Shown here: in pieces, positions 1 through 18,888 of the stretch
Position numbering within the stretch: the stretch's first letter is position 1
Layout of the letters: the number at the start of each line of letters is the position of its first letter
DNA from: Acidobacteriota bacterium
GTDB taxonomy: Bacteria > Acidobacteriota > Vicinamibacteria > Vicinamibacterales > UBA8438
Length of the DNA: 29,810 bases
Assembly: GCA_005778315.1 (NCBI GenBank)
Contig: SXOW01000513.1
Span: 1-29,810, forward strand
Direction of reading: 5' to 3'
Notes under the pieces: model-generated
What the model was told of the DNA's origin: nothing
Seen by the model: the letters and a program-made list of their open reading frames with translations, nothing else
Databases searched by the model: none
Program-made: the position numbers and the translations under genes

Positions 1-262
1 CGCCAACCAAATACATGCGCCGACGGCCATACAGGTCGGACATGCGACCCCAGATCGGCACTGACGCCGTGGACGTGAGCAGATACGCCGAAAACACCCA
101 GCTGTAGTGCGCCAGGCCGCCGAGCGTAGCGATGACAGTCGGCATCGCGGTGCTCACAACGGTGGCCTCGAGCGCGGCCAGGGCCATGCCGAGGAGCAAA
201 CCGACCGTGATCGCCCTGCGGCGGGGGAGGCTGACCTCTAGGTGGGGAGTCGCCGTCGACAT
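1..262 (-). CDS. MFS transporter, DHA2 (EmrB/QacA-like) family, N-terminal part; runs off the window edge
   Basis: Not in the ORF track; translated by hand from ATG at 262: [87 protein letters not shown]. This has the DHA2 TM1 pattern (LxALExTVVxTAMP), WVFSAYLL and MFS motif A ([10 protein letters not shown]). Confidence 0.9.
223..262. repeat. Copy A of a degenerate ~40-bp direct repeat; 5' end of the MFS gene
   Basis: Matches 2081..2119 at 32 of 40 aligned positions by hand, with a 12-bp exact core tggggagtcgcc. Confidence 0.75.
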
Positions 263-268
263 TACGGT

Positions 269-2050
269 TTAGCGCTCGGGTAACGCGAACACGAACAGAT
301 TGTTCGCGCTGCCAGGCTGCAGCTCCGGCGTCAGCCGCAGATTGTCGCGCGAGCTCAGGGATGACCCAGTGCTGGCTACGACGTACTGGGTGCCGTCCAC
401 GGCGTAGGTGATCGGGAACCCGGTCACGGACGACCCGAGGTTGATCTCCCACAACACGTCGCCGTTGTCCTGGTCGAACGCGCGGAACCGCCCGTTGCCG
501 TCGCCGCCAAAAATCAGCCCCCCGCCTGTCGCCACGAGCGAAGTCGTTCCGGCCCGCTGCTCGTAGACCCAGTCAATCTCGCCGGTCTCGGCCGAAATGG
601 CCTGGACGGTCCCGACCTGGTCGGTGCCGGGGGCAATCTGGTCCCGCTTGGCCAGCGCGTAGAGCGTGACGCCGCCCTCGGTGGTGGCCAGCATCTGTGC
701 ACAGGCGTTGCGCAACGGGTAATACATCATCTTGGTGAGGGGGCTGTAAGCGCCGGCCTCCCAATCCTTGCCCCCGGTCACAAACGTGGGACAGACCAAC
801 ACCTCGTCGCCCTCGCGCTCGAAGACCAGCTCACTGTTCAACGAGACCGCCCCGGTCGCCCCATCGATATCCGTGATCACATTCTGAGCGACGGTCGGCG
901 TGGCCCAGAGGAACTCACCGGTGGCGCGGTCGAGCGTGTAGACGATGCCGGTCTTCCCCGGAATACCGGTGATCACCTTCCGCACCTCGCCGGAGCGCAG
1001 CCGCGGGTTGATCCACGGCACCGTGGCCGGGTCTGGCGCCACCACCGTGTCGAGCAGCAGCCGCTCGAACGGGTGATCGAGATCCCAGTGGTCGTTCATG
1101 TGCTGGTAGTGCCAGACGATTTCGCCCGTGTCGGCATCCAGCGCCAGGGTGGAGTTGTGGTACAGGTGCGTCTTGTCCGTGCCCCCGAGTAGAAACTTCG
1201 GGGCGGGCGAGGTGACCGAGGTCCCGATGTAGACCAGGTTCAGCTCGGGGTCGAAGCTCGGCACCATCCAGGCCCCGACGTGCCGGCGTTCCTCGAACGG
1301 CACGTTGCCCCACGTCTCGTCGCCCGGCTCACCCGGCCCCGGAATCAGGCGGCGACGCCAGAGTTCCTGCCCATCTGTTGCGTCGTGCGCCACGACCACG
1401 CAGGCATGTGGCCCGCCCTTCGGGGCGCAGCTTCGCCCGGAAATGACCTTCCCGTTCGCCACGATCGGGCCCGACGTCTGATTGGCCGGGTTCACCTTGT
1501 AGTCGAGGATCTGGGTCTCCCAGACCAGCTCGCCGGTCTGGGCATCGAGGGCAAACACGAAGTCGTCCGCGCTGGTATCGATGATGAGGTTGCCATAGAT
1601 CGCCAGGTTGCGGTTGGTGTCGATCAGACTTGCGATCATGTAGTCAGCGAGGTCGTCTGGACGGTCACGGCGATACTCCCAGAGGAGATCCCCGGTGACG
1701 GCGTCGATCGCCTGGATGACATCACGCGGGTTCGGCATGTACATCACGCCGTTGTAGACGAGCGGGGTGCCCTGCTGCAAGCTGCCAGCGCCGAGCGCGC
1801 GCGTCCAGACCATCCGGATGCCCCCGACGTTGCCGCGGTCGATCTGGTCGAGCGGGCTGTATCCCCAGCTGTCGAACGTCCGACGCCACATGAGCCAGTC
1901 GTCAGGATCCGGGTTCTGCAGCACGGTATCCGTGACCGGCACGAACGCCGACGCCGGCTGCGCCCGTGCGGTCCCGAGCCCGAATGACACGGTGGCAATC
2001 GCGCACGCCAGCGTCACTACCCAACATGTTCCGCGGCTGGATGAAGGCAT
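269..2050 (-). CDS. Exported PQQ-dependent dehydrogenase (methanol/ethanol/glucose dehydrogenase-like beta-propeller)
   Basis: DWLMWRRTFDSWGYSPLDQI, QGTPLVYNGVMY, repeated ALDAxTGExxW tryptophan-docking motifs, HWDLD, CP..GGKDW..AYSP, terminal LFVFALP. Start placed at ATG 2050 because of SD AGGAGAG and a Sec-type signal ending ARA-Q; the ORF track extends to GTG 2119. Confidence 0.88.
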   Translation of the reverse strand: MPSSSRGTCWVVTLACAIATVSFGLGTARAQPASAFVPVTDTVLQNPDPDDWLMWRRTFDSWGYSPLDQIDRGNVGGIRMVWTRALGAGSLQQGTPLVYNGVMYMPNPRDVIQAIDAVTGDLLWEYRRDRPDDLADYMIASLIDTNRNLAIYGNLIIDTSADDFVFALDAQTGELVWETQILDYKVNPANQTSGPIVANGKVISGRSCAPKGGPHACVVVAHDATDGQELWRRRLIPGPGEPGDETWGNVPFEERRHVGAWMVPSFDPELNLVYIGTSVTSPAPKFLLGGTDKTHLYHNSTLALDADTGEIVWHYQHMNDHWDLDHPFERLLLDTVVAPDPATVPWINPRLRSGEVRKVITGIPGKTGIVYTLDRATGEFLWATPTVAQNVITDIDGATGAVSLNSELVFEREGDEVLVCPTFVTGGKDWEAGAYSPLTKMMYYPLRNACAQMLATTEGGVTLYALAKRDQIAPGTDQVGTVQAISAETGEIDWVYEQRAGTTSLVATGGGLIFGGDGNGRFRAFDQDNGDVLWEINLGSSVTGFPITYAVDGTQYVVASTGSSLSSRDNLRLTPELQPGSANNLFVFALPER

Positions 2051-2080
2051 CTGCTCTCCTGGTTGAGGTTGCTGCGTCGT

Positions 2081-2119
2081 GGGGGAAGCTGCCTGGAGAT
2101 GGGGAGTCGCCATCGTCAC
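2081..2119. repeat. Copy B of the degenerate direct repeat, upstream of the PQQ dehydrogenase start
   Basis: gggggaagctgcctggagatggggagtcgccatcgtcac versus gggggaggctgacctctaggtggggagtcgccgtcgacat at 223..262. Confidence 0.75.
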
Positions 2120-2192
2120 CCCATGAGCCTACCAGACGTGGGGGCAATCGCGACTATCATCACTGAATCGCTGTCTTCAACGGGGACTGACC

Positions 2193-3184
2193 ATGACGCC
2201 GAACCTGACCAGAATGCGAGCGGTCGTGCTCGACGCGCCGGGCCCAGCCGACGCGCTGCAGATCCGGGAGATCGCGATCCCGACACCGCGACTGGGCGAA
2301 GTGTTGATCGGGGTGAAGGCGTTCGGACTCAACCGCTCCGAGCTACACACGCGCCTCGGGCTCGCCGAGGGCGTCACGTTTCCTCGCGTCCTCGGCATCG
2401 AGGCCACCGGCACGGTGGCCTCCTGCCCGGGCGGCGAGTTTGACGTCGGGCAACAAGTGGCGGCGTTGATGGGCGGGATGGGTCGCGTGTTCGATGGGGG
2501 GGTACGCGGAGTACACCTGCGTCCCGGCCCGGCAGGTGGTGCCGTTCACGAGCAGCCTCGACTGGGCCACCCTTGGCGCGGTTCCCGAAATGCTCCAGAC
2601 CTCACACGGCTCCCTCACGATCGGCCTCGACGCACAGCCGGGGCAGTCGATCCTGATCCGTGGTGGTACGTCGTCGATCGGGATGGCCACTACGGTGCTG
2701 GCCAAGCGACGCGGGATGACCGTGCTGTCCACCACCCGCAACCTTGACCGCGCCGACATCCTTCGGGGGATCGGTGTCGACCATGTCCTGGTCGACACCG
2801 GCAGCGTCGCGGCCCAAGTCCGCGCAATCGTCCCTGCCGGGGTCGACACCGCGCTTGAACTCGTCGGAACGCCGACCTTGCGAGATACGCTGCGAGCGAC
2901 CCGCGTCCACGGGGTGGTCTGCTTTACCGGGATGTTGTCGAACCAATGGACCGTTCGCGACTTCTACCCCATCGAGTATCTCCCACGCGGCGTCCGGCTC
3001 ACCGCCTACGGCGGAGACGCCACAGACCTCCCGACCGAGGTATTGCAGGACTTCCTTGACGCGGTCGCGGCCGGTGAGACCACCGTGCCGATCCACCGCA
3101 CCTACCGCCTCGACGACATTTGCCAAAGCCCACGCGGACATGGAAGCCGGGCGAGCCACCGGCAAACTCGTCGTGCTGCCGTAA
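2193..3184 (+). pseudogene. NADPH:quinone oxidoreductase / zinc-independent MDR family protein with two +1 frameshifts (pseudogene or sequencing errors)
   Basis: Three ORF pieces join into one ~329-aa MDR protein: MRAVVLDAPG..VKAFGLNRSE..FD / GGYAEY..IRGGTSSIGM..LDDI / AHADMEAGRATGKLVVLP*. There is one extra G in the G7 run at 2496-2502 and one extra base in the TTT or AAA run at 3119-3128. The span is 992 nt = 330 codons + 2. Confidence 0.85.
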
Positions 3185-3250
3185 CGCTCGCTCGCACGCG
3201 GTCTCCAATCTGGTTCGTCCCCTCCGAGCACTGATCACGGTTTCACGGCC

Positions 3251-4564
3251 CTAGCCGCGCGCCGCGGCGACTGCTGCCAACTCTGCGGTCGAGAACGCCG
3301 CTTGAAAGTTCAGCCCCCCGATCGGCCCTTGCAGATCAACCACCTCGCCGAAGACATACAGGTCCTGAAAACGCTTGACGCGCATGGTGCCCGGATCCAG
3401 CTCCCGGAGCGCGAGCCCACCGGCCGTGACCTCCGCCTCGTCGAAGCCCGCCGTGCCGGAGATCGGCACCGGCAGTGCCTTCAGCTGCTCCACCAACAGA
3501 TGGCGTTTCGCTCGTGGCAACACGTGACAGCGAATCTGCGCGTCGAGTCCGGCCTGCCGGCACACGGTTTCGACCAGTCGGCGTGGCAGCTCGCCAGCGA
3601 GCAGTCTGACCACCGTCGGCGCTCCCCTACGCGCGGCGGCGACCCGGAGTTGGTCGGCCAGCGCTTCGCGAGTGACACCAGGCAGCAGGTCGACCTCCAT
3701 CGTGAAGCCCGGCGTGCCCGACCCTCGGGCGTCGTGACCCTCCATCGCGCGCGCGACGACATGCGACAGATCCATCGCACCCGGTCCCGAGAGACCGCGG
3801 TGTGTGAACAGCACCGGTCGCTCGCGCGTGCCGAGAATCGTGCCCTCGGTGTCCCGTAGACGTACGACCGCATCCTGCACCGAGAGCCCGGTGAGTTCGT
3901 GAACCCAGGGCGCTGGGCTCACGAGAGGCACCAGCGCCGGTGCCCCAGGTATGACCTCGAGACCGAGCGCCGCCAACCATGCGTACCCATCGCCGGTCGT
4001 GCCCGATCCGGGATAGCTCTTGCCGCCTGGGGACAGGAGCAGTCGTCTCGCACCGATGGACCGGCCGTCCGCAAGGTGCACGAGCCAGCCGTTGCCGTCG
4101 AGTTCGACGCCGGTGACTGGACACTCGCGACGCATCTCGACCCCGGCCGCCTCACAGGCCCGCACCAGCGCGTCACGCACGTCCCTCGCCGAGCCGCTCG
4201 CGGGAAAGACCTTGTCGAGTGGCGCCTCCACCGACGGCACACCCCAGGCGAGGAACTGCTCGCGCACGGCACTCGGCGGCAAGACCCGAAAGGCGGTTTT
4301 GAGGAAGCGCCCACCTTCAGTCCCGAAGAGCTGGGCCGCGGATTGCGGCCCGAGGGTCGTCGTCAGATTGCAGCGCGTGCCGCCGCTGGCGAGGATCTTG
4401 GTGCCCGCGCGCGGGGTCTTCTCCAGCAGCAAGACATCGGGCCGCTCGCCGCGCGCCTGCAGCAACACACCCGCCCGTTGCGCGGCCCAGAGCCCGGCCG
4501 CTCCAGCCCCGACCACGACGATGGCCCGTCTCGAGCACTCGTCGCCTGCGCCTGCCACTAACAT
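3251..4564 (-). CDS. HI0933/YhiN (BaiN-like) family NAD(P)/FAD-dependent oxidoreductase
   Basis: VVVGAGAAG Rossmann motif, KILASGGTRCNLT, GGKSYPGSGTTGDGY, LFTHRGLSGP, AEVTAGGL, GEVVDLQGPIGGLNFQAAFS. Start uncertain; ATG 4564 chosen, ORF track extends to 4660. Confidence 0.9.
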   Translation of the reverse strand: MLVAGAGDECSRRAIVVVGAGAAGLWAAQRAGVLLQARGERPDVLLLEKTPRAGTKILASGGTRCNLTTTLGPQSAAQLFGTEGGRFLKTAFRVLPPSAVREQFLAWGVPSVEAPLDKVFPASGSARDVRDALVRACEAAGVEMRRECPVTGVELDGNGWLVHLADGRSIGARRLLLSPGGKSYPGSGTTGDGYAWLAALGLEVIPGAPALVPLVSPAPWVHELTGLSVQDAVVRLRDTEGTILGTRERPVLFTHRGLSGPGAMDLSHVVARAMEGHDARGSGTPGFTMEVDLLPGVTREALADQLRVAAARRGAPTVVRLLAGELPRRLVETVCRQAGLDAQIRCHVLPRAKRHLLVEQLKALPVPISGTAGFDEAEVTAGGLALRELDPGTMRVKRFQDLYVFGEVVDLQGPIGGLNFQAAFSTAELAAVAAARG

Positions 4565-4627
4565 CGCTCCAGACGCCGCAGGCCGAGTCCGCGCAGCGGC
4601 TCTTCCCCGCTCTCGATCTGGTCGACG

Positions 4628-4666
4628 GGAGATGCGTGCACGGTGGAAATGGTAGTGCACGTCTCT
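4628..4666. promoter_or_regulatory. Imperfect inverted repeat (cgtgcac-N13-gtgcacg) enclosing a minus-strand -10-like TACCAT
   Basis: cgtgcac at 4635-4641, gtgcacg at 4655-4661, flanked by gaga/tctc; lies in a divergent intergenic region. Confidence 0.4.
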
Positions 4667-4717
4667 GATTCGTTATCGATCAGGTCACCCGGGCCGACGC
4701 GTCCGACCGGTTCCTCC

Positions 4718-4726
4718 TGGTAGACT
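4718..4726 (+). promoter_or_regulatory. Putative extended -10 promoter (TG-G-TAGACT)
   Basis: TGNTANNNT ends 9 nt before ATG 4736; no SD visible. Confidence 0.4.
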
Positions 4727-4735
4727 GGACGCCTG

Positions 4736-6052
4736 ATGACCCTGGTGACGCAGACGAGATTCTTGCGAATCGTGGCGCGGACCGGCCTGTTGCTGACCGC
4801 GCTCGTCAATGCGTCGGCAGCCCAGACATCGTCCGCGGTGCGCATGGTGCCACCACCCAACGACGGCGAGCGCTTCTGGCCGCGTTGGCGCGGTCCGTCC
4901 GGACAAGGCGTGGTCGAGGGGAGCGGCTATGTCGATACCTGGTCGGAGACGACCAACGTGCGTTGGCGGACGCCGGTCCCTGGCGTCGGGCACTCATCCC
5001 CGATCGTCTGGGGGGATCAGATTTTCCTGACCACGTCCCGCGACGGCGGACGACGCCTCTCGGTGCTCAGCTTCCGCCGCTCCGACGGCGCACTGCTGTG
5101 GGAGACCGACGCGCCAGACGGCCGCGTCGAGCAGCATCACGAGAAGAACACACCGGCCTCCGCCACGCCGACCACCGATGGTGAGCGGGTCTATGCGTCG
5201 TTCGGGAGCCGGGGACTGTTGGCGGTCGATTTCGACGGCAACGTGGTCTGGCACCGCGATCTGGGGAAGATCGAGAACTACCATGGCCCGGCCGGATCTC
5301 CCCTGCTGTACGGCGACACGGTCATCATCTATCAGGACCAGGGGGCCTCGTTCGGAGGCCGGAACGCCTCGGGGGCCTTTGTTATTGCGCTCGACGCGGC
5401 CAGCGGTGAGACCCGCTGGCGTACCGAGCGGTCGGCCAGCGTCGGCTGGGGGTCTCCCATCGCGATCTCGCTTGGCGACCATGACGAGTTGATTGTCAGC
5501 AGCAGCCGGGACGTGCGGTCCTACGCCCCCACGACGGGTGAGGAATTGTGGCAGTGCGAGGGCAACCTGTTCGAGGTGATTCCGACCCCGGTCGTCGGCC
5601 TCGGCCTGGTCTTCTGCACGTCCGGCCGCGCCGGCCCGACCCTGGCCATCCGCCCGGGCGGCAGGGGCGATGTGACCGAGAGCCATGTCGCCTGGAAAAC
5701 GACCCGAGGCTCACCGTTCGTCCCGTCCCCGCTGCTCTACGGCGACTACCTCTATACGCTCAACGACATGTCGAGCATTGTGACCTGCCTGCATGCCCGC
5801 ACCGGCGAGACGGTCTGGCAGGAGCGGCTGGGCCGGCCGCAGCGGGAGGCGATCTCGGCTTCACCGGTCGTGGTGGACGACAAGCTCTTCATCACCAACG
5901 ACGACGGAGTGACCTACGTCCTCAGGACCGGTCCGACGTTCGAACTGTTGCACACCAACGACATCGGCGCCCGCACGCTCGCCTCTCCGGCGCTAGTGGA
6001 TGGTGTGTGGTACATCCGCACCGTCGACGGGCTCATCGCCATCGGCGCCTGA
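4736..6052 (+). CDS. Secreted PQQ-binding-like beta-propeller repeat protein (BamB-like fold, Planctomycete/Acidobacteria type)
   Basis: Signal peptide, WPRWRGPSGQG, GHSSPIVWGDQIF, ASATPTTDGERVY, SPLLYGD repeats, terminal ASPALVDG..YIRT..LIAIG. Confidence 0.85.
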   Translation: MTLVTQTRFLRIVARTGLLLTALVNASAAQTSSAVRMVPPPNDGERFWPRWRGPSGQGVVEGSGYVDTWSETTNVRWRTPVPGVGHSSPIVWGDQIFLTTSRDGGRRLSVLSFRRSDGALLWETDAPDGRVEQHHEKNTPASATPTTDGERVYASFGSRGLLAVDFDGNVVWHRDLGKIENYHGPAGSPLLYGDTVIIYQDQGASFGGRNASGAFVIALDAASGETRWRTERSASVGWGSPIAISLGDHDELIVSSSRDVRSYAPTTGEELWQCEGNLFEVIPTPVVGLGLVFCTSGRAGPTLAIRPGGRGDVTESHVAWKTTRGSPFVPSPLLYGDYLYTLNDMSSIVTCLHARTGETVWQERLGRPQREAISASPVVVDDKLFITNDDGVTYVLRTGPTFELLHTNDIGARTLASPALVDGVWYIRTVDGLIAIGA

Positions 6053-9944: not shown

Positions 9945-11537
9945 GTGCTTGGCGGTATGACAGAACTGGAGCAAGCGATCGCGCGGCTTGAAACGGCGGC
10001 GGCTCGGCACCGCGGACAACGGATGCCGGTAGAACCACAGCTGGCTGCACGGCGCCGCCCGCCGTGGCAGGCGGCAGTCGTGTGCGTGGCGGCCGTGCTC
10101 TCCACCACCGCCCTCGCGGCGGTCCTCAGCGCGCCGGACGACAGGGCCGTCTCCCCTCGTGGCCGCCGGCCGATGTTGTCCGAAACTCAAGTGACCCAAA
10201 CCAGGCAGGCGCGACGACCTGACCCGCCGCCCGCAGCAGTTCCGGTAGCGCGTGTCGCCAGGCGGGAGCGCCCCGCCGGGGTCGAGATCCCAGCGCCGTC
10301 GACGCGTGCGCAAGCGTCTGGCACGGCGGTGACCAGCGCCCTCGACGTCGCCGACCCGATGGCCGAACCGCTCCCAGTTCCCGTTGAGCCCGCTGCCGCC
10401 GCTGCCCCGGCGCTGACCGATCCACCCGAGACGACGACGGACGCGCCGCTACCGGCCCGGCCGGACGCGGAGGCGCCGCCACGGGGCATCACCCAGCCGG
10501 AGGCGGAGGCGCCGCCACGGGGCATCACCCAGCCGGAGGCGGAGGCGCCGCCACGGGGCATCAACCAGCCGGACGCGGAGGCGTCGCCACTGGGCATCGA
10601 CCAGCCGGCCACCGAGCCACCGCTACAGGTCGTCCGACCAGCCACCGTGTCCGAGTCACCGCGAGCGGCGACCCCGCCGGGAGGTCTGGAACCGGGGACC
10701 CCAGCGCCACCTCCGACCAGCGCATCGGACACAGCGGAACGAGTAGAAGGGACGCAGCGCAATTGGCGAACAGTGCGGTACGTGCCGGATGCATTGCCGG
10801 TCCCGCTGGCCCAGCTGCCATGCGCGCTGCCTACGCAGGGGACTTTTCCAGCCTCGGCAGTCGGCGGCGACATGCCTGCCCCGGCATTTGGAGCCGTCCC
10901 GTCGGCGGCTTTGCCGTACCGCGGAGTCATGACCGCAGCGGACGGCACACCGCGGGTCGGCCGTATCAATGCGATCTTTGCGCTGTATCACGCGGCCGAC
11001 GGTGGCGTCCCGGTGTGGGTCGACATCAAGGCGGTGGAAACGAGCCCAACCGGGGAGTACCTCGTGTGGCTTGGGCAACCTACGCCGTTCCCCGAAGACC
11101 TCTTCACGTCCGACTCGCCGCCCTGGCTGGGAATACAACCGGAAGGGGCAGCGGAGCAGCCTCGGGTGAGGATGATGGACACGCCATGTCGTCGATCCGC
11201 GCCGGACGACCCGCAGCCCACGCTCGCCGGCGTCGCGCCGCCGACCCCGATCCCGTACCGCAGTGTGTTGTACGACTCGACGGGCGCACCGCTGGTCGGA
11301 CACGTCAGCGCGATCTTCGCGTTCTACGAAGAGCCGGATGGGGGGGTCCCGATGTGGGTCGAAATCCAGACGGTGCACACAGGCGCCGCCGGGGGATATG
11401 CGGTGCTGCTCGGCAGCGGGACCCCGCTCCCAACGGACCTGCTTGCCAGCGGGGCGTCACGCTGGCTCGGCGTGCAACCGAATGGCCACGCAGAGCAGCC
11501 ACGGGTTGAATTCGCCGCCACCTCCGCCCCACGCTAG
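9945..11537 (+). CDS. Membrane-anchored hypothetical protein: N-terminal TM, long Pro/Ala-rich stalk, two tandem ~90-aa domains
   Basis: Hydrophobic AAVVCVAAVLSTTALAAVL segment, PAT-rich linker, and two copies of PY(R)xxxxxxxGxPxxGxxxAIFAxYxxxDGGVPxWVxI..GxYxVxLG..WLG(I/V)QPxGxAEQPRV. Start GTG 9945 or ATG 9957. Confidence 0.75.
   Translation: MLGGMTELEQAIARLETAAARHRGQRMPVEPQLAARRRPPWQAAVVCVAAVLSTTALAAVLSAPDDRAVSPRGRRPMLSETQVTQTRQARRPDPPPAAVPVARVARRERPAGVEIPAPSTRAQASGTAVTSALDVADPMAEPLPVPVEPAAAAAPALTDPPETTTDAPLPARPDAEAPPRGITQPEAEAPPRGITQPEAEAPPRGINQPDAEASPLGIDQPATEPPLQVVRPATVSESPRAATPPGGLEPGTPAPPPTSASDTAERVEGTQRNWRTVRYVPDALPVPLAQLPCALPTQGTFPASAVGGDMPAPAFGAVPSAALPYRGVMTAADGTPRVGRINAIFALYHAADGGVPVWVDIKAVETSPTGEYLVWLGQPTPFPEDLFTSDSPPWLGIQPEGAAEQPRVRMMDTPCRRSAPDDPQPTLAGVAPPTPIPYRSVLYDSTGAPLVGHVSAIFAFYEEPDGGVPMWVEIQTVHTGAAGGYAVLLGSGTPLPTDLLASGASRWLGVQPNGHAEQPRVEFAATSAPR
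10461..10604 (+). repeat. In-frame tandem repeat, 4 x 36 bp (P[D/E]AEAPPRGITQ)
   Basis: Units at 10461, 10497, 10533 and 10569; the first three are nearly identical and the fourth is degenerate. No spacers. Confidence 0.95.
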
Positions 11538-14165: not shown

Positions 14166-15602
14166 TCATGCGTCGAACCGGTCGAGGAAGCTCGGACTGC
14201 GCTCGGCGATCTCGCCGTAGATCCGCAGACAGATGTCGGTCCACTCGCGGATCCAGTCGCAGTAGTGGAGATTCGGATGGGTCGTGCTGCCGTAGCGCGT
14301 ATGGGCCTCGTGATAGCAGCCGCCAGAGCACAGCGGTCGCGCCCAGCACGTGTGACAGTCCGTCTTGTGGCCGATGTGGTTGCGTTCGAGAAACGCCCGC
14401 TGCGCGTCCCGGTCAAGCCCCGCGCTCACACTGCCCAGACCGTGTTCCTCCGACCCGGCAAAACGGTGACACAGCGCGACATCCCCGCCGGTCGAGACAC
14501 CGATCAACCCCAATCCGGCGCCACACGGATAGGCCTTGCTCACGCCTTTGTGAATCTCCCCAAGCGTCTCGCTGACGTTCGAGAAACCGTGATGCCGACC
14601 GGCCAGCGCGGCCTGCAGGAACTCGTCCGCGAGCGCTGTGAACTGGGTGACCATCTGGTCGAAGCCAGAGGCGTCGAGCGCGTGGTCGCGGTCCGGTGAC
14701 GTGGTGACCGGCGCGAATCCCACTTCTTGAAACCCGATCTCGTCGGTCAGGTGACGGTAGATGCCGAGCACATCACTGACCTGCGACGTCAACGTCACGC
14801 GGGCCCCAATCGGTCGACTCCGGTGACGTCGCAGGAGTTCCTGAACCCGCGGCAGCATCACGTCGTAGCTGCCGCTGCCGTCGTGAAACACGCGAAAGCG
14901 ATTCTGCATCTCGCGCGGCCCGTCAATGGACACCGTCACCGAGATGTCCTCGTCGGCCAGGAACGCAATCATCTTGGGCGTCAACAATGTCGCGTTGGTC
15001 GTCAGGTTGAATTCGACCCGCTTCCCGTACGCCGCCGCCTGGGCCTTGGCGTAGGGGACCGCCCGGCTCAACACGGGATAGTTCATCAGCGTCTCGCCAC
15101 CAAAGAAACTGACGTGGACCACCGCAACCTCGCCCGACTCGCGAAAGAGCAGGTCGATGCTCTGGCGCGCCGTCTCGTCGGTCATGAATTTGGGCTGCTT
15201 GCCGTTGGTCGTGTCGACGATCTTGTCTTCGCTGTATTCGTAGCAATAGCCACAACTCAGGTTGCACTGATTGGTGACGTTGAGCACCGCGGTGGTCAGC
15301 GGGAACGGCGTCACCGGTGTCAGCGGAATAATGGTTGGCGTCTTCGGCGCCGGGGTGGGCACCGGCTGAACCGCATGGATCTGCTCGAGTTCGGCGAGCA
15401 GCCCGCCCAGATCGGTGCGCGGAAACTGCGCGGACACCCGCGAGATCAGGTCCGTCCGGGTGGCCGGCGCTGCGTCGAGCGCATCGATCAAGGCCGCGGC
15501 CGGCGCATCGAGGGCGAACACTGCGGCGCTCGGCACGAGATACAGATAGCGGCGATTGGCCGCCTCGAACGCATGGTGCTCGCCCACACGCAGCATGGTC
15601 AT
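14166..15602 (-). CDS. qhpD: Radical SAM/SPASM thioether-forming maturase of QHNDH
   Basis: CNLSCGYC, SFFGGETL, TTNATLL, VSIDGP, SPASM Cys motifs (YPCGAG, LCHRF, CHTCWARPLCSGGCYHE), N-terminal RRE-like region. ATGA overlap with the qhpA stop at 15599-15602. Confidence 0.95.
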   Translation of the reverse strand: MTMLRVGEHHAFEAANRRYLYLVPSAAVFALDAPAAALIDALDAAPATRTDLISRVSAQFPRTDLGGLLAELEQIHAVQPVPTPAPKTPTIIPLTPVTPFPLTTAVLNVTNQCNLSCGYCYEYSEDKIVDTTNGKQPKFMTDETARQSIDLLFRESGEVAVVHVSFFGGETLMNYPVLSRAVPYAKAQAAAYGKRVEFNLTTNATLLTPKMIAFLADEDISVTVSIDGPREMQNRFRVFHDGSGSYDVMLPRVQELLRRHRSRPIGARVTLTSQVSDVLGIYRHLTDEIGFQEVGFAPVTTSPDRDHALDASGFDQMVTQFTALADEFLQAALAGRHHGFSNVSETLGEIHKGVSKAYPCGAGLGLIGVSTGGDVALCHRFAGSEEHGLGSVSAGLDRDAQRAFLERNHIGHKTDCHTCWARPLCSGGCYHEAHTRYGSTTHPNLHYCDWIREWTDICLRIYGEIAERSPSFLDRFDA

Positions 15603-17290: not shown

Positions 17291-17349
17291 AGGCGACGCG
17301 TCAGGTCCGTGCGTGAGCCCTTTGTAGCACAGGTCGGGGGTGAGCGTCT

Positions 17350-18888
17350 CTACAAACCGCCCGTCTCATGCACCAGCACACCCTTGGCGACCAACACCGA
17401 CAGCGCGCCCAGAAAGTCGGGCAGACTGACGGGCGGACAACACCGGATATACGCCTCGAACAGGTCCGGCACCTGCTCGTGGTCCGGCGCCAGCGCCACG
17501 AGACGCACCAGGTCGATGTCGCGCAGGAATCGGATCCCCCTCCCATTCAAGGGCCAGGTCGGCAGCACAAGCCGATCTTCGAGCACCACCTCTCGCTCCC
17601 GCAACGCCGGTTTCGCTTCCATCCGCACCTGATCGCCACGTCGCAACCTGATCCGGGGGGCCCGGCGCAGCCCATCGAACGCAGCGAGCACGCCGGGGTC
17701 GTCGCGCAGCGAGGCCACGTCCAGATCCGCGGACGGACCACGGTCATCCACGACCTCCCCCACACCCGCGCGTCCAGTCCAGAACGGGTGCACGTGGCGT
17801 TCGGCTGCCTCCGCGAAGAACGTCGATGCCTGCGTGACCGACGCCGCGTGAATCTCCTGCTCTCGCGCCGTGAACAGGTCTAGCGCCACACCGGCAAGCG
17901 AGGCGTTGGTCAGCGACGTATGCACGACGACCGCGGCCAGCCAGGCTGATGCCAGCGCCTTCTTGACGCCGTACGACGACAGCGGGTCGATGAAGGAGGC
18001 GGCATCCCCGACCAGCAGCACGCCGGGACCCCCGCCGGCATGCGCGTGATACAAGGACGCGTCGCACCCCCTCGGCGGGTTCGCGCGGGTCGCGTCCCGA
18101 AGGAGCCCTCGGAGCGCTACCGTCTTGGCCACCTCTCGTTCGTATCGGGACAGCAGCGCCCGGGCGCCGCCCATGTCAGTCGTTCGTGGGTCCACCATGA
18201 CCGTGACGTACCGTTGAGAGCGCGTCACCGGAACCGACCATGCCCAGCCGTCCGCATAGGTCTCGACCACGGTGTGGCTGGGGTCGGGCAGTCCCCAGCC
18301 GCCATCTCGGGTCCATGTCGCTGCGAGTGCGAGCGTGGCACCGGCAGGGTCGGCAACCCGGTAGCCGCGTCGGGCCACGACCCCGGCCCGACCGGAGCAG
18401 TCGAGCACAAATGCGGTCGCCACCGTATGGCGCTGCTGGTCGCGGGTGACATAGTCGACCGTGGACACAGAGGGCCCGGGACGACCACTGGCCGCCGCGA
18501 GCCGCACGTCCCGCACAGACGCGTCGGGCACGATCTCCGCCCCCGCGGCGCCCGCGAGCCGCAGGAGCAGGGCATCGAACTCACGGCGTTCGACTTGCCA
18601 GCCGGCGGTGCCGCTGGCAAAGGCGGCCGTGCGCGTCGCCTCTTCACCCCACCACACCGTATTTCCGGTACACCGCAGGAACCCGGCCGCATTGATGGCC
18701 TGAGTGACGCCCAGCAGATCGAACAGCCGCTCGCAACTGGGCGGAAGGGATTCGCCGAGCGACCGGGACGGATCAGCGGCGCGGGTGACCACCCGCACCG
18801 AGTGCCCCCACAGGGACAGGAGACGCGCAGCGGCCGCCCCGGCCGGTCCACCACCGATCACGACCGCGTCGAACGGTTCCCTCACCAC
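17350..18888 (-). CDS. qhpG: FAD-dependent monooxygenase (tryptophan-halogenase-like fold) of QHNDH biogenesis
   Basis: DAVVIGGGPAG, GESLPP, WQVERREFD, DCSGR, GWAWSVP, VGDAASFIDPLSSYGV; immediately upstream of qhpA. GTG 18888 chosen as start (CACAAT 6 nt upstream); ORF track gives 18930. Confidence 0.85.
   Translation of the reverse strand: MVREPFDAVVIGGGPAGAAAARLLSLWGHSVRVVTRAADPSRSLGESLPPSCERLFDLLGVTQAINAAGFLRCTGNTVWWGEEATRTAAFASGTAGWQVERREFDALLLRLAGAAGAEIVPDASVRDVRLAAASGRPGPSVSTVDYVTRDQQRHTVATAFVLDCSGRAGVVARRGYRVADPAGATLALAATWTRDGGWGLPDPSHTVVETYADGWAWSVPVTRSQRYVTVMVDPRTTDMGGARALLSRYEREVAKTVALRGLLRDATRANPPRGCDASLYHAHAGGGPGVLLVGDAASFIDPLSSYGVKKALASAWLAAVVVHTSLTNASLAGVALDLFTAREQEIHAASVTQASTFFAEAAERHVHPFWTGRAGVGEVVDDRGPSADLDVASLRDDPGVLAAFDGLRRAPRIRLRRGDQVRMEAKPALREREVVLEDRLVLPTWPLNGRGIRFLRDIDLVRLVALAPDHEQVPDLFEAYIRCCPPVSLPDFLGALSVLVAKGVLVHETGGL

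Follow-up and report, generated by a model that had tools for sequence, protein, structure and literature searches.

The window analysed here is a 29,810-nucleotide stretch of DNA from a soil Acidobacteriota bacterium of the Vicinamibacterales (GenBank assembly GCA_005778315.1, contig SXOW01000513.1), and it makes up the entire contig C510 of a 3.7-Mb, 65% complete metagenome-assembled genome (MAG) in 525 contigs. Near its left end, on the minus strand, a gene for a pyrroloquinoline quinone (PQQ)-dependent dehydrogenase precedes a gene for a transporter of the major facilitator superfamily (MFS). We propose, with considerable confidence, that the dehydrogenase gene came to lie inside the 5' end of the MFS gene, that the MFS start was duplicated, and that the MFS promoter was taken over by the incoming gene. 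A preliminary description of this DNA had already suggested that the dehydrogenase was inserted just inside the MFS gene, with the MFS start regenerated downstream, and that it thereby captured the transporter's promoter. Both suggestions gain support from our analysis: the insertion from the spacing of the promoter, a pair of nhmmer matches and the orthologue states retained in two copies of the MFS start, and the capture from TGGTAGGCT, a putative promoter element found before the upstream copy at the spacing seen in MFS orthologues.

The flanking repeat and the promoter

The dehydrogenase gene is flanked by a direct repeat, of which the downstream copy (copy 1) forms the start of the MFS gene and the upstream copy (copy 2) lies ahead of the dehydrogenase (Table 1). 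The repeat had been placed at 223-262 and 2081-2119, with 32 of 40 positions matching; it is present there and is in fact longer, extending over 216-262 and 2072-2119. In a Smith-Waterman alignment (scoring +1/-1, gap -3/-1), the minus-strand sequence running from 261 to 216 matched that running from 2118 to 2072 in 38 of 48 columns. The alignment scores 24 and contains two gaps, one of 1 nt and the other of 2 nt. The repeat covers MFS codons 1-16, about 8 nt more than was seen originally, and reaches into the RRR codons; what a more permissive alignment added past 216 and 2072 was discarded as noise. Both copies begin at start codons, ATG 262 and GTG 2119, as had been reported, but GTG 2119 would be the relic start of the MFS gene rather than that of the dehydrogenase, which most likely starts at ATG 2050, behind AGGAG.

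Judged by the similarity of the two sequences alone, the significance of the repeat is borderline. Its 12-mer core occurs twice in the assembly, where about 1.7 occurrences are expected by chance; the genome-wide search for further copies that the preliminary description had proposed thus returned two positions only, both at this locus. A blastn-short search with the core gave E=18 only. With the 52-nt MFS start as the query, the best non-self match in the genome was copy 2 (score 24), followed by matches scoring 20, 18 and 17. The comparison with shuffled sequence, also proposed earlier, spoke for the repeat in so far as 400 dinucleotide shuffles of the query reached at most 21 against the window (Gumbel P about 3e-4), but another pair within the window attains 24 as well.

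We nevertheless consider the repeat to be real, because its context, namely the promoter, the orthologue profiles and the flank controls, settles the case. For the flank controls, the 220 nt upstream of each PQQ dehydrogenase paralogue of this genome (n=17) were compared with the 220 nt downstream. A flank repeat was found for 1 of the 17 paralogues, the window gene, with a score of 24 against cross-pair controls with a mean of 11.1, a standard deviation of 2.0 and a maximum of 18 (n=272). None of the 18 loci carrying orthologues of the dehydrogenase in relatives had a comparable repeat, the single high score (L015) being due to GC-rich low complexity. A general "cassette" mechanism for the dispersal of PQQ dehydrogenases, which we had entertained, is unsupported, since among the paralogues and orthologues flank repeats are confined to the window gene.

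The promoter evidence comes from MFS orthologues, which were compared at 189 loci (29+80+80). One of the 29, L049 (G319), also supplied one of the ten promoter sequences in the position weight matrix (PWM) described below, and no conclusion depends on it alone. The orthologues begin at the same position as ATG 262, and 64 unique starts among them have the architecture TGGTAsSCT-N6-start, in which no Shine-Dalgarno (SD) sequence is present and a TANNNT hexamer with an extended -10 begins 12 nt upstream of the start codon. Across this transporter family (DHA2-like, about 507 aa; loci L041-L232) the motif takes the near-invariant form cgTGGTAC(G/C)CT-N6-start throughout the Vicinamibacterales, while the sequence further upstream differs; in the clade nearest to the window gene, GTG is the apparent leaderless start codon. 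Zheng et al. (2011; PMC3160421) give TANNNT about 12 nt before the start codon as a signature of leaderless genes, and report such genes as most frequent in Actinobacteria and Deinococcus-Thermus. The MFS orthologues and copy 2 resemble the leaderless genes described there in having the hexamer 12 nt before the start and no SD sequence, and differ from them in that here we are dealing with a family-wide trait of one Vicinamibacterales transporter gene, often with a GTG start.

This architecture is missing before ATG 262. Upstream of copy 2, TGGTAGGCT (2134-2126) is followed by CATGGG and then by GTG 2119: TAGGCT occupies positions -12 to -7, so that the hexamer ends 6 nt before the GTG, and TG stands at the extended -10 position, as in leaderless-type genes. 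Only five occurrences of TGGTANNCT-N6-RTG were found in the genome, and with a PWM built from ten foreign MFS orthologue promoters, TGGTAGGCT-N6-GTG (2134-2117) scores highest among the 7.4 million positions of the genome. A similar-looking promoter on contig C77 was rejected because, to judge by the poor forward translation, it probably lies antisense within a gene. An nhmmer profile of the twelve nearest foreign MFS orthologue starts (-35 to +54) gave two significant matches in the genome, one at 262-210 (E 6e-4), confined to the coding part, and one at 2137-2081 (E 1.2e-3), which covers the promoter, the start and 40 nt of coding sequence; the next match had an E of 0.64. In our reading, the MFS gene was originally transcribed from TGGTAGGCT, a promoter of the leaderless type, which would now drive the dehydrogenase and the MFS gene together.

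In all orthologous loci examined, the promoter directly precedes a full MFS gene, and the uninterrupted site is thus the rule. A gene for a PQQ dehydrogenase, a quinone oxidoreductase (QOR) or an HI0933-like flavoprotein was found upstream in 0 of the 189 loci (over about 0.5-3 kb, depending on the length of the flank). The empty site that the preliminary description had suggested looking for is therefore seen in part: the promoter followed by the full MFS gene is present in 189 loci, but conservation does not extend to the wider 2120-2192 spacer or to the QOR neighbour. Only about 20 promoter-proximal bases are common to relatives, the rest of the spacer and the QOR gene being conserved nowhere searched, and a DNA query with the spacer and the QOR gene found no match in 104 genomes of the family (G000 included). 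The 103 genomes of the family, those of the genus included, contain no orthologue of the MFS gene itself, whose closest relatives, with 80-93% identity over 87 residues, come from other Vicinamibacterales families and from soil metagenomes. This suggests that the MFS gene may have been acquired horizontally.

A comparison of the two copies with the nearest orthologues, which read GTG ... CCT CAT CTT CAG GTC AGC CTC, bears on their descent. Copy 2 retains the orthologue states GTG, CAT and CAG (Gln), lost in copy 1, and copy 1 retains TCG, GTC and CTC. Both carry GCGACTCCCCA, which is present in no aligned orthologue start; therefore, both derive from one sequence, and the duplication arose in this lineage. 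Copy 2 would then be the stranded original start of the MFS gene, still behind its original promoter. MFS sequence no longer follows it, and it now appears to form the 5' part of the dehydrogenase transcript, in frame. Divergence between the copies amounts to 8 of 46 aligned sites and two indels, whereas 0.34 of the four-fold degenerate sites of the dehydrogenase differ between this genome and its congener G002. If both copies drift near-neutrally, and with the caveat that the numbers are small, the event would be younger than the split from G002, which fits its absence there. The decay of the repeat had been taken as a sign of an old event; by this comparison the event is only moderately old.

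As to present-day expression, RNA polymerase would use the old MFS promoter to make a single transcript beginning at or next to GTG 2119, and the first 69 nt of this transcript would consist of relic codons and linker. RNA structure in the 99-nt leader does not exceed that of shuffled sequence (z=+1.7). Ribosomes would start mainly at the SD-led ATG 2050 of the dehydrogenase, and leaderless initiation at GTG 2119 would do no more than lengthen the protein by 23 in-frame residues. A scan of 1-2400 for consensus sigma-70 promoters and terminators found nothing, and so none between the dehydrogenase and the MFS gene. The MFS gene would be left with neither a promoter nor an SD sequence of its own; since it never had an SD sequence, its translation would now depend on re-initiation at a distance of 6 nt from the TAA of the dehydrogenase. 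In the MFS gene, GTG has probably given way to ATG as the start codon; copy 2 and the majority of the nearest orthologues have GTG, and ATG 262 plausibly reflects an adaptation to the new context. The reading frame of the dehydrogenase remains open upstream as far as GTG 2119, and the start-to-start spacing of 1857 nt is a multiple of three, which places GTG 2119, the dehydrogenase and the MFS gene in one frame. The chance of this is about 1/9, and we draw no inference from it.

The dehydrogenase gene, its edges and its surroundings

The product of the dehydrogenase gene matches PF01011 with an E of 5e-60 (204 bits over residues 52-383) and also PQQ_2, which identifies it as a PQQ beta-propeller protein. 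Its N-terminal hydrophobic signal ends between ARA and QP. Orthologues with 92-94% amino acid identity are found in two congeners, and with 75-87% across the family, in other contexts and with no MFS gene; data in ENA contain a 98%-identical protein with the same ends. In the orthologues, about 30-35 residues precede the mature N-terminus, and a start at ATG 2050 gives a signal peptide of the same length. In-frame translation of the orthologues just ahead of their start codons suggests a G-rich, SD-like stretch at the position of AGGAG.

Table 1. Features at the left end of the window, listed from left to right.
Feature	Position	Strand	Details	Basis
MFS transporter gene	1..262	(-)	first 87 codons only; contig ends inside gene	Pfam MFS_1
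Copy 1, predicted working MFS start	216..262	(-)	ATG 262	start position and N-terminal pattern common to orthologues; nhmmer 262-210, E 6e-4
Right junction (probable)	263..268	(-)	ACCGTA between dehydrogenase stop and MFS ATG	comparison with orthologue of congener G006
PQQ-dependent dehydrogenase gene, probable inserted cargo	269..2050	(-)	593 aa; Sec signal peptide; stop TAA 271-269	PF01011
Linker	2051..2071	(-)	21 nt; putative Shine-Dalgarno sequence AGGAG 5 nt before ATG 2050	MFS similarity stops at 2072
Copy 2, probable relic of MFS codons 1-16	2072..2119	(-)	GTG start; reads VTMATPHLQ...	Smith-Waterman against copy 1; nhmmer 2137-2081
Putative extended -10 promoter element	2126..2134	(-)	TGGTAGGCT (TGn + TAnnnT)	PWM and orthologue starts

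At the right edge, the window can be followed in its congener G006 as far as ...CCC GAG CGx TAx AC, after which the two sequences part. Homology thus ends 2 nt after the stop codon, which places the right junction there: the first 2 nt of ACCGTA match the post-stop sequence of G006, the remaining CGTA would be filler, and no remnant of a promoter is recognisable. The C-terminal "ER" of the protein was considered as junction filler as well, and this was rejected because G006 has it too. The left junction lies at about 2072/2071, where similarity to the MFS gene ends. A search for a donor locus with the leader and signal peptide of the dehydrogenase gave noise only, and the leader formed by copy 2 was found in none of the dehydrogenase orthologues compared. 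The insert does not end in terminal inverted repeats. The preliminary description had remarked on the lack of a recombinase, and this holds among the window ORFs (open reading frames) scanned against Pfam: no recombinase, integrase or transposase was found in the insert, which contains the dehydrogenase ORF alone, in the neighbouring ORFs or in nine further ORFs of the window.

The same dehydrogenase orthologue, at 88-89% nucleotide identity, occurs in three contexts in three congeneric genomes: L002 of G002, L068/L069 of G006, and 269-2050 of the window. The three are homologous only in the part that encodes the mature protein, and are unrelated in their signal peptides and flanks. Gene conversion among the 20 or more paralogues, or frequent relocation, is a possible source of this pattern. 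A further rearrangement of this kind of locus is seen when G000:C497:860-3759 is compared with G006:C202 (L068): a gene of about 1 kb beside a PQQ dehydrogenase paralogue is inverted, just where the orthologue of the window dehydrogenase is situated in G006.

Divergent from the dehydrogenase lies the QOR-like gene (2193-3234, plus strand), with an ADH_N domain followed by ADH_zinc_N. It is split over two frames near 2500 (...GRVFDGG / GGYAEYTCV...) and its C-terminal end also looks off-frame, so that it is either a pseudogene or the result of an assembly indel. The block 1-4750, which holds the MFS, PQQ dehydrogenase, QOR and HI0933-like flavoprotein genes, has no synteny in congeners, and synteny with G002, G005 and G006 begins only at about 4770. 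At this edge, a second, shorter beta-propeller protein of the PQQ_2/BamB-like type is encoded at 4736-6052 (plus strand). Further into the window, ORF 9945-11537, which has no Pfam match, contains about five tandem 36-nt units (12-residue repeats) at 10420-10635. The other direct-repeat pair with a score of 24 lies at about 15421-15540 and 17311-18310, inside an amine dehydrogenase gene cluster.

How the arrangement may have arisen

In the reading that we favour, the ancestor would have had a monocistronic MFS gene with a GTG start and an extended -10 hexamer ending 6 nt upstream, that is, of the leaderless type. A promoterless segment of about 1.8 kb, comprising the PQQ dehydrogenase with its own SD sequence, signal peptide and stop codon, would have lodged after MFS codon 16, and the first 47 nt or so of the MFS coding sequence would have been duplicated during the insertion. 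On the minus strand the order would now be the MFS promoter, copy 2, the 21-nt SD linker, the dehydrogenase, a 6-nt gap, and copy 1 leading into the transporter. What is expected of an insertion with duplication was found: the two copies are the closest relatives of each other, both derive from the MFS gene, and the target is uninterrupted in relatives. The genome also contains a Ku gene, which we count in favour of this reading and name beside end-joining.

Several points weigh against it. The all-against-all scan of the window turned up one other, unrelated pair with the same score of 24, and a target duplication of 47 bp is unusual for a simple insertion. The signal peptides and leaders of the dehydrogenase orthologues are mutually unalignable, so that the left edge could not be refined further. 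No close relative with the same arrangement, or with the exact empty site (same spacer and QOR neighbour), was found among those searched. The genome is a MAG of 65% completeness, from which the remainder of the MFS gene is absent, and both the intactness of this gene and the DNA downstream of it lie beyond the end of the contig. The starts of transcription and translation are inferred from sequence only.

We read the scar as the product of a one-off recombination or repair event. As to its mechanism, we tentatively prefer a single, recombinase-independent step, in which end-joining or template-switch insertion at a staggered break would have been followed by fill-in, giving the 47-bp duplication; this is a preference rather than a firm assignment.

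A less likely route to the same product, though one to be taken seriously, is homologous recombination. Circular DNA in which a short 5' fragment of the MFS gene was already joined to the dehydrogenase could have integrated by a Campbell-type single crossover or, as a variant, incoming DNA anchored in the MFS gene could have entered by homology-facilitated illegitimate recombination. Insertion-duplication classically leaves a gene fragment directly repeated around an insert, a length of 47 bp is not too short for RecA, and the transporter, which lacks orthologues in the family and has its nearest relatives in other families, shows that foreign DNA did enter the region. The two copies could then be different alleles, and their divergence would not date the event. 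Such a route, however, needs the dehydrogenase to have been joined to the MFS start beforehand, no donor-like locus was found, and the presence of GCGACTCCCCA in both copies argues for one source.

Rather unlikely, in our estimation, is a tandem duplication of a block running from the MFS gene to the dehydrogenase, followed by deletion of the first MFS gene from codon 17 to the SD sequence of the dehydrogenase. Here the dehydrogenase would once have been downstream of the MFS gene, and the duplication would have joined its stop codon to the start of the second MFS gene. This uses only common bacterial rearrangements, it explains without any special cut why the repeat starts at the start codon, and the region is indeed rearranged relative to all congeners. 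Against it, two events with three breakpoints are required, all of them at gene edges, and a second dehydrogenase is predicted after the MFS gene; no copy with more than 73% identity is present in the incomplete assembly, in which the contig ends inside the MFS gene.

No more than 4 nt separate the beginning of the downstream copy from the start codon, and in a leaderless gene the start codon is the 5' end of the transcript too. A recurrent, recombinase-less route of insertion that enters via the initiation region of leaderless genes is therefore conceivable, with a break coupled to the initiation of transcription, or a step templated by RNA, as its possible basis. We regard such a route, under which the present case would be no isolated accident, as improbable.

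The preliminary description had offered an att site or a target duplication as the origin of the repeat. Duplication of the target stands, but the att version is very improbable: it would take a decayed element with an attP mimicking the 5' end of the MFS gene and the 12-bp core as the site of crossover. The exact core inside diverged flanks, the regenerated start of the target gene and the upstream displacement of the original promoter and start are what such integration would produce. However, the insert consists of one gene only, native to the genus, it lacks terminal inverted repeats, no integrase or other recombinase was found in it or among the window ORFs scanned, and at 83% identity chance alone would yield an unbroken match of 12 nt. 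Similarity extends on both sides of the core, continuing for about 27 nt downstream where such an attP needs none, the core recurs nowhere else in the genome, and 0 of 189 MFS orthologue loci carry an insert at the start.

Finally, we see hardly any likelihood that the dehydrogenase simply has a generic leaderless-type promoter and that the 38 of 48 matches are a chance likeness of GC-rich gene starts: the unrelated pair in the window reaches the same score and a few other genes have TGGTAnnCT-N6-ATG (for example on contigs C413 and C24), but the coincidence would have to be triple, combining the best match in the genome, the register of the start codon, and a rare promoter of this MFS family directly upstream of that very MFS gene, and it would have to accommodate the genome-wide E for copy 2 with the foreign profile, flank controls of at most 18 against 24, and a leader absent from the dehydrogenase orthologues compared.

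Relation to known systems and significance

SXT/R391 integrative and conjugative elements enter the 5' end of prfC, and islands with dusA-specific integrases do likewise at dusA; in both cases the start of the target gene is regenerated. The arrangement described here is similar in that the insert lies just inside the 5' end of its target, a second start restores the frame, and the original promoter and start are stranded upstream. It is different in that a single 1.8-kb gene of the housekeeping type is involved, with no integrase or element, and in that there is no recurring att site, similarity running on both sides of the core and the insert being found once among 189 loci. The target-site duplications of transposable elements also flank an insert with a direct repeat of the target, but they usually measure 2-14 bp as compared to 47 bp here, and the present insert has no terminal inverted repeats, no transposase in itself or in the ORFs scanned, and a cargo trimmed to an SD sequence, an ORF and a stop codon.

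Homology-facilitated illegitimate recombination is known from naturally transformable bacteria. With this process, and with Campbell-type insertion-duplication, our case shares a gene fragment duplicated around foreign or relocated DNA and the lack of a dedicated recombinase; it differs in that no circular or anchor-bearing donor was identified and in that both copies appear to come from the lineage's own sequence. According to the "life-cycle of operons" view, operons grow by the insertion of genes next to, or into, an existing transcription unit. The outcome here agrees with this, as a gene would be expressed behind a resident promoter and the resident gene would become the downstream cistron. 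The difference is that the insertion lies inside the coding sequence of a leaderless-type gene, with both the relic and the regenerated start still readable.

We take the arrangement to be a two-gene operon formed by a one-off rearrangement, and not a new kind of molecular system. It may serve as a good teaching example of promoter capture and operon formation at the start of a leaderless-type gene. A conserved leaderless-type promoter is documented along with it for one transporter family across the Vicinamibacterales. On the reading favoured above, the locus would be a natural record of the birth of an operon, in which a newcomer captures the promoter of a resident gene and leaves the latter as the second, coupled cistron; with the relic and regenerated starts still readable, the event can be dated relative to speciation. 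The locus also suggests what a leaderless gene may need after the loss of its promoter, namely a distance of 6 nt from stop to start and, probably, a change from GTG to ATG.

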